A DNA stretch of 61,417 nucleotides, the filler included, from an uncultured bacterium (GTDB taxonomy: Bacteria > Hinthialibacterota > Hinthialibacteria > Hinthialibacterales > Hinthialibacteraceae), in the NCBI GenBank assembly GCA_964449065.1. It is 22 parts of 22 records of this genome, joined end to end, with 100 filler letters (N's around TTAATTAATTAA, not from the genome) between each part and the next. Parts side by side here need not be neighbours in the genome. Positions count along the whole stretch, not along the records: positions 14,533 to 17,309 come from CAYVAZ010000497.1; 21 more parts are not named here. One strand, 5' to 3'. The position numbers were made by a program, and so were the translations under genes. This document shows positions 14,433-17,309 of the stretch, in pieces. Positions within the stretch are counted from its first letter, which is position 1, and every line of letters begins with the position of its first letter. Below the pieces are notes generated by a model that worked only from the letters and a program-made list of their open reading frames with translations, ran no database searches and was not told the origin of the DNA.

Positions 14433-14576
14433 NNNNNNNNNNNNNNNNNNNNNNNNNNNNNNNNNNNNNNNNNNNNTTAATTAATTAANNNNNNNNNNNN
14501 NNNNNNNNNNNNNNNNNNNNNNNNNNNNNNNNGTTCGTGGCCTTGCTCATTGGTTCTCAGGGTGCGGCCCTTCTGA

Positions 14577-17119
14577 CAGGGACTTCGGCCCAATCTGAAA
14601 GGCGCCGCGGCAGAGCCCAGACTGACGCGGGTGGCGGCCTGAAAATTAACCGATCCAACACCGGCATCCCTTGCATCGGTTCGTGAGCCGTGATCTACGA
14701 TTCCGGTGTACGAACCTACTTCTCCGCAGTTGTTGATCGTCAAGTCACGTCTTTCCAAAGAGTCGTGGGAGGAACGTGTTCGCACAGCAAAGCGCGAAGC
14801 GAAGCTGTTTGCCAAGATTGCGAAGCGGGTGGAGGCGGGAGACTCGTTGAACGAGTCGGTCGGCTCCGTGCTGCCAGGGTCGAGAAGAAGCTATGCGATC
14901 CGACACTGGCGCCGCTATCGGGAAATAGGATGGGAAGCGTTGATCGATCGCCGCCTTCCGAGGGAGCCTCGCGAGTCAAAGCGTGTCCGCGCCGAGATCG
15001 AAGCCTTGTGTGCCGGCAACCCGAAGCTCTCGATGCCCGAGGCCGTTGCAGCGCTCGAGAACAACAAGCCCGGTAGACCGCTGCCGTCCCCGGCGACGCT
15101 CAAGCGAGAGCTTCGACGAGCTCGGGCACGAGTCAAACGCGAGGATGACGCCGACCGGGTGGAGACGACAGAGTTGCCGCTCGCGGGCGGTGAGCTCTTG
15201 CTCGCCGCGGAGGTGGAGACTGGCGCAATCGCCGCTCTGCGCGACGAGGTGGTCGCCATCGGCAAAGAAGCGCTCGAAGCCTCGGCCGGTCAGGAGCCGC
15301 AAAAGGACGTAGGTCTTCGGGATCGCCGAGGACGTTTTACTGTCACCTACAATCGGAAGCGTCGGCGAAAGCGCGGCGAGAAGGTCGCATCGTATTTGCG
15401 AACGGCAGCCGAGAAGGCAGACGGTCGCGTGCCGAGCTGGCCGAGGTTTGTACGAGAGCAGCCGGAGACGATCGAAGCGAAGCTGCGGACGCTTGTGTTT
15501 GAACCGTTGGTTAGCCGCGTAAAGGGATGGGCCGGCCTTCGCTCGCCGGACGCGGCGGGGTTGGCGCCACTGACCGGTTACGCCTACATGCCGAGCACCT
15601 TGGCCAAGTTCACCTCGGCCCTGGCGATCTCGAACGCAGGCCCGCGCCTGCTGCGAGCGGCAGGTAGCACATGGCACGCCGTCGCCGAACAACGATGGGG
15701 TGAAGGTGGAGCGATGGCAGCGCTGTATGTAGACAACCACGCCAAGGAGGTGTGGACATCGCTGTTCACCCAGTCGGGAAAGGTGTCGAGTTTGAACCGG
15801 GTGATGCCGGCGATCACGACGACGTATGTGCACACCGGTGCGGGTACACCAGTGGTGATGGGTGTGCAGAGTGGCGGAGCTCCGCTGGCGCCGCAACTCG
15901 CCACGCTGGTGGAGCGAACAGAAAAACAGTTGGGCGACGATATCCGACGTGCTGTGGTAATCGACTCGGAAGGGAGCACGTTCGATATACTGAGTGGCTT
16001 TTCCGAAGCGAGACGTGTGATCGTGACGCCCCTGCGGCCTTCGCGGGCGCCGGCGCTGGAGTTGCGGCACGAGGCGGGGTCATATTTCCGACCGTACCGG
16101 GAGAAGGACGAGCTACGGATCGGGTCGGCGACGCTGTACCACCGGACGACGGGGCGGTCGCTGGAGGTGGGGGTACTCGAGGTCAGGCGTGAGCATCGTG
16201 ACGCGGACACGGTATTGCTGACAACGGGTCTCGCGTTGGGATTCGGAGGTCGCGAGTTGGCGGACCTGTACTTCGCTCGTTGGCCGATCCAGGAAAACTG
16301 GTTTCGCGACGGCGAGGTGGTCAGGCTCGACGAGCATCGTGGCAACTGTTCTCAGGTGGTGACGAACATCGCGGTGGTCGCGGAAGTGGAGCGCTTGGAG
16401 CGACAGCTCGACGGTTGGCATAAGGTCAGCGAGTTGGAGAAGAGTGCCAAGACAATAAAGAAGGAATTAGAGAAGACAACGAAAGACGAGAAAGCGAAGG
16501 CGCGTAGGCTAGCGACGCGGCGCCGACGTCTGGATCGAGAATCGGCGCAGGGCGAACCGATGAGGAAGGCATTTGTTCGAGCAGCCACAGAACATCATGC
16601 GGCCCTGGTGGAGTGGGAGCAGGCACAGCTCGCATCGCAGCAGGCCAAGACACGGCTGGAGCAGAATCAAGGTCATAGGGAGAAGTTGGAAACCCGACTA
16701 TTGAAGGCGGAAGCGCGGCTGAAGACGCTCAAACCTCGACAGAAGATCCGGCGATTGGACGTGGCTCTGGACTCAGTGTTGACCTCGACGAAGCTGACAG
16801 CCGCGCAGCTAATCTCGTTCGTGTTACGAGAGTACGTGCCGGAACAGCCGATGAGTCCTCAAACATTTGTGGCGCGAGTCCTGCCGATACGCGGACGCAA
16901 GCATGTCACGCGGGACAGCGAAACCATCATCTTCGATGAGAACCCTCGCGACCCGGATGTCACGAAGGCGCTTGTCGCTGCGTGCAAGTGTCTAAACAAG
17001 CGGAGGCTGACCCGGGATGACCGCCGTCTTCATTATAAGGTTGAGCTGTGTCCCGGCGATGGGTAGTCGGTGGTGCAGTTGATCTGATCCTGGCCTTCCC
17101 CCTCTGGCCGAATTCCCTG
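14577..17119 (+). mobile_element. Complete 2543-bp insertion sequence with 14-bp terminal inverted repeats
   Basis: IRL CAGGGACTTCGGCC (14577-14590) and IRR GGCCGAATTCCCTG (17106-17119), 13/14 complementary, enclosing one transposase ORF. Confidence 0.85.
14706..17066 (+). CDS. DDE transposase, 786 aa, IS4-clan-like with long coiled coil
   Basis: N-terminal HTH-like region; LYVDNH, VVIDSEG and YFARWPIQENWFR as probable D, D, E motifs. Confidence 0.8.
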   Translation: MYEPTSPQLLIVKSRLSKESWEERVRTAKREAKLFAKIAKRVEAGDSLNESVGSVLPGSRRSYAIRHWRRYREIGWEALIDRRLPREPRESKRVRAEIEALCAGNPKLSMPEAVAALENNKPGRPLPSPATLKRELRRARARVKREDDADRVETTELPLAGGELLLAAEVETGAIAALRDEVVAIGKEALEASAGQEPQKDVGLRDRRGRFTVTYNRKRRRKRGEKVASYLRTAAEKADGRVPSWPRFVREQPETIEAKLRTLVFEPLVSRVKGWAGLRSPDAAGLAPLTGYAYMPSTLAKFTSALAISNAGPRLLRAAGSTWHAVAEQRWGEGGAMAALYVDNHAKEVWTSLFTQSGKVSSLNRVMPAITTTYVHTGAGTPVVMGVQSGGAPLAPQLATLVERTEKQLGDDIRRAVVIDSEGSTFDILSGFSEARRVIVTPLRPSRAPALELRHEAGSYFRPYREKDELRIGSATLYHRTTGRSLEVGVLEVRREHRDADTVLLTTGLALGFGGRELADLYFARWPIQENWFRDGEVVRLDEHRGNCSQVVTNIAVVAEVERLERQLDGWHKVSELEKSAKTIKKELEKTTKDEKAKARRLATRRRRLDRESAQGEPMRKAFVRAATEHHAALVEWEQAQLASQQAKTRLEQNQGHREKLETRLLKAEARLKTLKPRQKIRRLDVALDSVLTSTKLTAAQLISFVLREYVPEQPMSPQTFVARVLPIRGRKHVTRDSETIIFDENPRDPDVTKALVAACKCLNKRRLTRDDRRLHYKVELCPGDG

Positions 17120-17309
17120 TCGGAGCTGATAACGTGCGTGCCCTCGGTCTCAAGTCCTGGGGCATTCAGATACGTAGCGCACACCGCGCCCACCTGGTTC
17201 TGGAACTCCTGTGGATCGGCTGGCTTGGGATTGAGCCAGTAGCGCGACATGTGCGGCCGTAACTGCGCCTCATTTTAAAAAACGACCGACATGACGCGGC
17301 GAGATCTCT
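17120..17309 (-). pseudogene. IS630-family transposase fragment cut at the first catalytic Asp
   Basis: EISPRHVGRFLK*, then in the +1 frame EAQLRPHMSRYWLNP...HVISSD, ending exactly at the IRR of the neighbouring IS. Confidence 0.8.

Follow-up and report, generated by a model that had tools for sequence, protein, structure and literature searches.

Structure of the Element and Its Family

The window, by which we mean the whole stretch of 61,417 nucleotides analyzed here from an uncultured Hinthialibacteraceae bacterium (assembly GCA_964449065.1), is a chain of 22 small contigs. One of these, of 2,777 bp (14533-17309), is filled by a complete insertion sequence (IS) of 2,543 bp at 14577-17119 (+). 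The element is bounded by two 14-bp terminal inverted repeats (TIRs) that differ at one position, CAGGGACTTCGGCC on the left (14577-14590, +) and CAGGGAATTCGGCC on the right (17106-17119, -, read inward), and no pair as good arose in 200 shuffles of its two noncoding margins. Its sole open reading frame (ORF) is a transposase gene of 786 amino acids with a GTG start and no frameshift (14706-17066, +). A complete 2.5-kb IS with one such ORF and one-mismatch ends had been proposed from a sequence-only reading of the window, and this stands. The right limit is fixed by a contig from sequencing run X2, which follows the element to 17121 and then continues into other sequence, departing from the window 2 bp beyond 17119. 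TIRs around one transposase gene, a conserved triad of two aspartates and a glutamate (D/D/E) and a direct target duplication, the features by which a DDE IS is recognized, are found in the element or its relatives. That 14577-17119 is an IS with a 5-bp TCNGA duplication is, in our judgment, as good as certain.

A phmmer search recovered 440 homologous proteins among 7,992 candidates, and a profile search of 1.84 billion 50%-identity representatives gave 666 matches at E 0.001 and 214 at 1e-30. The 119 non-self homologs among the matches listed share 55-85% identity with the transposase and measure about 750-815 residues; in the sources, family proteins are labeled "hypothetical protein," "helix-turn-helix domain-containing protein" or with a bare "transposase." We collected 102 related loci, 22 from species-representative genomes (22 of 66 pattern matches confirmed) and the best 80 of 138 metagenome loci. 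The sequence-only reading had recommended gathering further copies so as to define the target duplication, and the copies gathered have the same ends; a duplication of 5 bp was shown in relatives. Elements with both ends (n=69, window included) span 2,517-2,646 bp (median 2,549), with one exception of 2,938 bp (L101); this copy and L023, where the transposase match extends over 3.3 kb, probably contain nested inserts. A consensus, CAGGGAcTTCGGCC, is common to 73 left and 79 right ends, and CAGG..CGGC-type ends are found in three of five members examined at 25-30% identity and at one end of a fourth.

Subterminal GATC(A) motifs are also conserved at the family's ends. In the window, the motif GATCAGATCA (17080-17089, -; right-end consensus of 79 ends) is a possible additional binding site for the transposase. 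A TGATCT motif just 5' of the start codon (14690-14697, +), with TTGAC ahead of it in the family (left-end consensus of 69 ends), represents a putative promoter or binding site; a sigma-70 scan returned no site at this TGATCT motif. An Rfam search of the element gave no match.

Among the matches listed, 113 of the 119 close homologs are not on a contig of at least 5 kb, which usually points to a repeated element that fragments assemblies. In genome G004 we counted 25 matches to the ends; 18 of them belong to near-identical full copies and lie at contig breaks. The spread of the family as many near-identical copies at different sites suggests, indirectly, that it is or has been active. The plasmid and phage collections gave no match to the element. 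Family members often lie in or beside mobile genes, such as IS630 (window 17120-17309) and ISAs1 (L247), and at L062 and L075 a family copy apparently adjoins the end of another.

Target Site and Duplication

The 5-bp TCNGA target suggested by the sequence-only reading adjoins 132 of 156 distinct ends and is matched within one mismatch at 154; beyond 5 bp from these ends there is no sequence information. Because TCNGA is palindromic, a duplication had to be tested against another reading, in which the ends are truly 5 bp longer, TCNGA belongs to the inverted repeat and no target is duplicated. Both ends do read TC-N-GA-CAGGG inward, as this reading would have it. However, of 65 elements, 21 have directly identical 5-bp flanks against an expectation of 14.3 (p 0.023); inverted identity, seen in 15 of 65 (13.9 expected), stays at chance level, and a match at any other length from 2 to 10 bp was never found in 64 elements. 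The left flanks in G004 (n=8: TCTGA 3, TCAGA 3, TCCGA 1, CCCGA 1) and the right flanks (n=10: TCTGA 4, TCAGA 4, TCCGA 1, CCCGA 1) agree in direct orientation, the rare CCCGA included. The CCCGA insertion sits in a repeat with 14 other listed copies. We examined 10 of these uninterrupted paralogs, and in every one the flanks from the two sides of the insertion have an overlap of exactly 5 bp. The 5 bp are thus present once at empty sites, which refutes the longer ends; moreover, the off-consensus flanks TCAGT, TCCAA, ACAGA, TCATA and CCCGA repeat directly and not inverted, and the center base differs among copies of one element. We find an element with longer ends hardly credible.

Additional evidence comes from six mini-elements of 126-205 bp that carry the family's ends in three genomes (L110, L142 and L151 in G004; L214 in G409; L215 and L216 in G407). 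Direct 5-bp repeats, including the off-consensus ACAGA and TCATA, flank four of the five whose flanks are readable, L216 being cut off. Taken together, the empty sites in G004, the mini-elements and the flank statistics show that the duplication is 5 bp, as demonstrated in relatives rather than at the window's own copy. Some flanks speak against this picture. They are unequal in the fifth readable mini-element (L214) and, as in the window, in 44 of 65 two-ended elements, among them some with long flanks and the distant copy L272. Assembly collapse or later rearrangement would account for such cases. Codon phase continues across the junctions at two of three equal-flank and two of nine unequal-flank loci, which is uninformative. 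At L005, where the target is presumably an IS3-like gene, the flanks form one reading frame with a 5-bp overlap; the pieces are not recognized by Pfam, and we do not count this locus as support.

The CCCGA target in G004 (L144, L138, L229-L238) is a repeat of about 300 bp, of which at least 14 further copies exist, 70-89% identical. Three of the mini-elements, together with their duplication, add a multiple of three bases (133+5, 133+5 and 205+5), and L110 has an additional left end 73 bp upstream. A strict mini-element pattern matched none of 401 genomes, and a loose one matched one of 147 and one of 42, both carriers already known. A further match, L173, was rejected as a chance pairing of ends.

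Flanks of the Window Copy

In the window the element lies between TCTGA (14572-14576, +) and TCGGA (17120-17124, +), which we regard as target duplication copies of two different insertions. The right-hand copy is inside a gene of the IS630 family, an interrupted transposase fragment outside the element (17122-17250, -) that served as insertion target. The break falls at the S-D codons of the gene; in P0303, an uninterrupted protein of 98% identity, the sequence goes on as SSDEKTG, a continuation that the left flank does not supply. Relatives of this IS630 protein carry the Pfam domain DDE_3; the DDE_3 match starts at the interrupted D, which we take to be the first catalytic aspartate. Two sequencing runs from one study, which may be the source, bear on the same junction: a contig of run X1 crosses the element into the IS630 flank, whereas in run X2 the right flank is TCTGA. 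The latter equals the window's left flank, although the pairing of the two is not proven, and the left junction is covered by none of the runs examined. Since the right flanks in X1 and X2 differ, at least two insertions exist in the host, and flanks from two of them are joined in the window contig. The sequence-only reading, which had noted that the flanks were unequal and that the left did not continue the IS630 on the right, and had attributed them to two insertions, is therefore borne out by the uninterrupted protein and by the second right flank. Collapse of several copies during assembly is the simplest and likeliest cause; alternatively, recombination between copies may have brought these flanks together.

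Transposase Domains and Predicted Fold

The 786-residue protein gave nothing in a Pfam search except HTH_32 (E 6.6e-6, below cut-off) over an N-terminal helix-turn-helix (HTH) region, residues 65-134 (14898-15107, +). Of 50 distant members, 30 match HTH_32, 22 match the N-terminus of the IS630 model and 19 that of the IS481 model. Judging from its relatives, the HTH is likely of IS630/IS481 type and a putative binder of the element's ends. An Arg-rich segment follows at about residues 205-224 (15318-15377, +), with R205, G209, Y215 and N216 invariant in two alignments. The predicted RNase H-like catalytic core (15732-16295, +) contains D343 (15732-15734), D420 (15963-15965) and E530 (16293-16295), none of which varies among 120 close, 21 mixed and 50 distant sequences, and DDE_Tnp_1 matches 16 of the 50 distant members. 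Y522 and R525-W526-P527 precede E530, and the motif YFARWPIQENWFR is present. Across the family the catalytic helix reads Y-(2)-R-W-P-(2)-E-(2)-F-K/R: R is separated from E by four residues in 182 of 183 proteins, the proline occurs in 179 of 182, and K occupies the YREK place in only 8 of 182. Thus, the HTH-like N-terminus, Arg-rich segment, D/D/E residues and long helical region after the glutamate reported by the sequence-only reading are all present, while its YREK-like motif holds for the Y and R before the glutamate and not for the motif as a whole.

The AlphaFold2 model of the transposase (predicted local distance difference test, pLDDT, 80; predicted template modeling score, pTM, 0.61) starts with a helical N-terminal part; after it come an alpha/beta core, interrupted at about residues 451-506 by a beta-rich insertion, two long helices and a small C-terminal alpha/beta domain (residues 718-780; 16857-17045, +). 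As that reading had advised, the model was searched with Foldseek, and the top match was Tn5 transposase (E 9.5e-4). Tn5 also leads in VIA-align, with Z 11.7, root-mean-square deviation (rmsd) 5.3 and 315 residues aligned, and in a second run with Z 12.1, rmsd 5.5 and 317 aligned, although the match is modest, its Z being tied (within 1) with unrelated helical bundles that match only the coiled coil. The superposition places model residues 163-738 on Tn5 5-471, on both sides of the coiled coil. We did not take families missing from the fold-match lists as excluded. Sequence searches of the PDB gave nothing at E 0.001, and weak Ras and coiled-coil matches were rejected as chance. The core is thus predicted to be Tn5-like, with an RNase H (DDE) fold, and the chemistry of the element is probably that of an ordinary DDE enzyme. 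Besides the modest match, three points count against this assignment. Core residues 344-392 are poorly predicted (pLDDT below 50); the D/D/E core was assigned from conservation and the overall fold match and not from a residue-level superposition of the triad; and the catalytic helix is longer by one residue, with the lysine of YREK missing, so that the hairpin chemistry may differ.

A long arm follows the catalytic helix. In the model, residues 548-709 (16347-16832, +) form an antiparallel coiled-coil hairpin with long helices at 548-614 and 621-709; the pLDDT is mostly above 80 from residue 561 and about 55-63 at the start. Since the Tn5 alignment spans both of its sides, the arm has the appearance of a segment inserted into a Tn5-like chain. 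NCBIfam gave weak SMC/Rad50-type matches only on the helical region, and among solved transposases matched by the fold searches none has a counterpart of this long coiled coil, which follows the catalytic glutamate directly. The most likely role of the arm is to support dimerisation or end pairing, which we put forward only tentatively. The arm might instead be a spacer that the enzyme could do without, or a surface on which a host factor or target DNA docks, a view that falls a little short of an even chance. In the monomer model it forms an intramolecular hairpin, few of its residues are invariant, and 8 of 11 distant members have an arm shorter by 30-50 residues. Four of the members with shorter arms (L176, L177, L181 and L184) keep 5-bp TCNGA-like flanks, so the arm does not set the duplication length. 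On the other hand, every full-length member aligned has retained it, the Pfam family PF21804 (see below) has a shorter form, and it varies little in length, measuring 150-159 residues in 260 of the 277 proteins with both anchors found, a set dominated by two subgroups.

Relationship to Known Families

We judged IS-family membership by models and descriptions, that is, by the scores of NCBIfam models and by the IS4-group table in PMC2266710. Every NCBIfam IS model that scores at all is far below its cut-off for all members tested, which agrees with the claim of the sequence-only reading that the element fits no standard family. With IS4 and IS50 (Tn5) it shares a single ORF, a DDE core, Y-x-x-R-W before the catalytic glutamate and a beta-rich insertion, and Tn5 is the best structural match. 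However, the element lacks the Y-(2)-R-(3)-E-(6)-K motif used as a criterion there, duplicates 5 bp as opposed to 7-13 bp, has 2.5 kb and a 786-residue ORF against 1.15-1.8 kb in most IS4 subgroups (PMC2266710, Table 1), and has an added HTH and coiled coil. The query has no match to the NCBIfam IS4 models (cut-offs 115 and 152 bits); distant members score about 35 bits or less (best E 1.7e-9), with the IS4_1 model matching 30 of the 50 weakly.

IS1634 is described in the same source as IS4-related, with an incomplete YREK, a 5-6-bp duplication, a 5'-C end and a large transposase, all likenesses to our element, and with features that it does not share, such as a length of 1.5-2.0 kb, AT-rich targets and poorly conserved ends (PMC2266710). 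IS1634 proteins have a long spacer before the glutamate and mostly lack the arginine, whereas here the arginine is invariant, the extra mass follows the glutamate and the target is TCNGA. Against an IS1634 cut-off of 100 bits, 7 of the 50 distant members match weakly, at about 30 bits or less (best E 3.2e-7). IS701, with a 4-bp duplication, and ISH3, with 4-5 bp, differ from the element in size (1.2-1.55 kb) and in their YACT or CRGT ends (PMC2266710, Table 1), and the IS701 model weakly matches 2 of the 50. For IS1380 (cut-off 180 bits, not reached), one of 11 distant members scores 22.9 bits, with profile probabilities of 2-20%. ISAs1 shares CAGGG-starting ends, as seen in two copies in genome G001, but has 1.25-1.29 kb, fewer than 400 amino acids and no profile similarity to the element (1-2% probability). 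ISAs1 duplications are 8-10 bp. No NCBIfam ISAs1 match was found among the members tested, and the ISNCY_2 model matches only the HTH of 4 of the 50 distant members.

The nearest relative of the family, judged from profiles, is Pfam PF21804 (Transposase_29), itself unclassified. The relationship was first suggested by the ESM Atlas and then recovered with hhalign (99.6% over 646 columns, 19% identity); single PF21804 proteins reach 93-99%, versus 8-80% for IS4. The profile check proposed by the sequence-only reading thus left the Pfam side empty at cut-off but yielded one distant full-length homolog. PF21804 proteins have 720-840 amino acids, an HTH N-terminus, a Y-x-D first aspartate and an R-W..E catalytic helix, after which come a helical hairpin and an alpha/beta domain at the C-terminus, and the PF21804 model also matches Tn5 best. 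They differ from the element in having CCAGA as opposed to CAGGG ends, no TCNGA flanks, R-(3)-E in place of R-W-P-(2)-E and a shorter hairpin. In a tree built without IS1634, IS701, ISH3 and IS1182, with long outgroup branches and two rows dropped, the element's family (56 rows, 99/99) and PF21804 (6 rows, 100/98) form separate starred clades, and PF21804 is not resolved as sister of the family (open fork, 82/25).

The full-length profile match, the same domain order and the common Tn5 top match raise the question of whether the element is a divergent member of a cataloged group, whether an IS4-like or ISNCY entry of ISfinder or simply Transposase_29, and some sources do already label distant members "transposase." Nevertheless, the PF21804 hidden Markov model (gathering score 27 bits) finds neither the query at E 1 nor the 50 distant members at E 0.01, the identity is 19%, the ends differ, the clades are separate and no named IS model matches at cut-off; we think such membership unlikely. 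No description of the family was found in the full-text literature searched, which comprised main texts mostly outside subscription journals. PF21804 is named once, in a list of transposase Pfams in the available part of PMC13639185, and the available part of the digIS paper makes no mention of Myxococcota or Sorangium (PMC8147514). We conclude that the element probably represents a new IS family within the IS4 superfamily, set apart by models and descriptions and having a clear-cut target rule and an uncommon arm.

The PF21804 clade also looks unclassified. Its core elements L201, L202 and L203 have CCAGA-type ends and flanks fitting a GANTC-like target, and L202 fits a 3-bp duplication. Two PF21804-like copies, L207 and L210 (G145:C3, about 2.231-2.259 Mb), each of 2,290 bp, are 99.7% identical and lie in the same orientation 25 kb apart; their outer flanks are both AGTG, and the pair may form a composite transposon that duplicated 4 bp.

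Proposed Mechanism of Transposition

We propose, with fair confidence, that the element moves by Tn5-like cut-and-paste. In Tn5, Y319 and R322 act in hairpin resolution and adjoin W323 (PMC2566895), and IS4-group elements are described as cut-and-paste (PMC2266710). A hairpin route is inferred from this group behavior and from the match of the three Tn5 residues to Y522, R525 and W526. A transposase dimer would bind the TIR and the subterminal GATCA motifs, the HTH probably reading both, and the coiled-coil arm would likely help to hold the dimer together. D343, D420 and E530 would nick the 3' ends of the element, and Y522, R525 and W526, by motif analogy to Tn5, would process the hairpin. The freed ends would then attack the palindromic target 5 bp apart, and a two-fold symmetric complex would fit a palindromic TCNGA.

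In an alternative scenario the element and its target are the same but transposition is replicative, or copy-out/paste-in, and the unequal flanks are real rearrangements between copies. The 44 unequal pairs among 65 elements would be expected here, the N-terminal HTH resembles IS481/IS630 models and the YREK motif is altered. Long-read genome G001 (L289-L302) gives a further reason for caution toward cut-and-paste, since it holds decayed remnants of several subtypes, with solitary ends only, and an intact copy was not found there. Yet the 113 of 119 listed close homologs on short contigs, and the G004 contigs that break at the element's ends, are as expected for collapsed repeats, and the G004 flank sets pair up. 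Furthermore, the catalytic helix retains Y, R and W, and the matches of the core, Tn5 and DDE_Tnp_1, represent a cut-and-paste group (PMC2266710). We consider a replicative route quite improbable and retain cut-and-paste.

A bolder proposal, which we place on the unlikely side, would make the family and PF21804 an undescribed branch of the IS4 superfamily, in which a paired HTH of IS630/IS481 type is fused to a Tn5-type core. The SMC/Rad50-like arm of 100-150 residues on the catalytic helix would then be a working part of the transpososome, for end pairing or target capture, giving strict, programmable-free integration at TCNGA.

Host Assignment

The contig of the element has a G+C content of 61%, against 47% for the genome bin, and ranks 9th of 515 by tetranucleotide distance. 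No second copy was found in the bin by blastn, tblastn or pattern, and the alternative right flank of run X2 is absent from it (completeness 86.7%). Among the matches listed, the closest named homolog (85% identity) is from a Myxococcota bacterium, on a 27-kb contig. The 5 of 22 species-representative loci on contigs above 20 kb are all titled Myxococcales or Kofleriaceae, and other phyla appear only on contigs below 5 kb; in a sample drawn from the phylum of a Kofleriaceae genome, 23 of 401 genomes match the element. The contig is therefore probably misbinned from a myxobacterium, and myxobacteria are likely hosts of the family. Six other contigs of the bin (C403, C453, C410, C367, C451 and C480) have 63-68% G+C and outlying tetranucleotide use, and the bin probably carries further foreign DNA.

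Implications

An abundant IS family has been annotated as "hypothetical protein," and its orphan contigs of 2.5-3 kb easily end up in the wrong bin. The ends, target, duplication and mini-elements of the family are defined well enough for the design of a mini-transposon assay, and the specific 5-bp target, the 14-bp ends and the natural mini-elements of 130-200 bp are useful parts for GC-rich hosts such as myxobacteria. With this family one could also test how the target is attacked by IS4-like enzymes that duplicate 5 bp, a question left open in PMC2266710.

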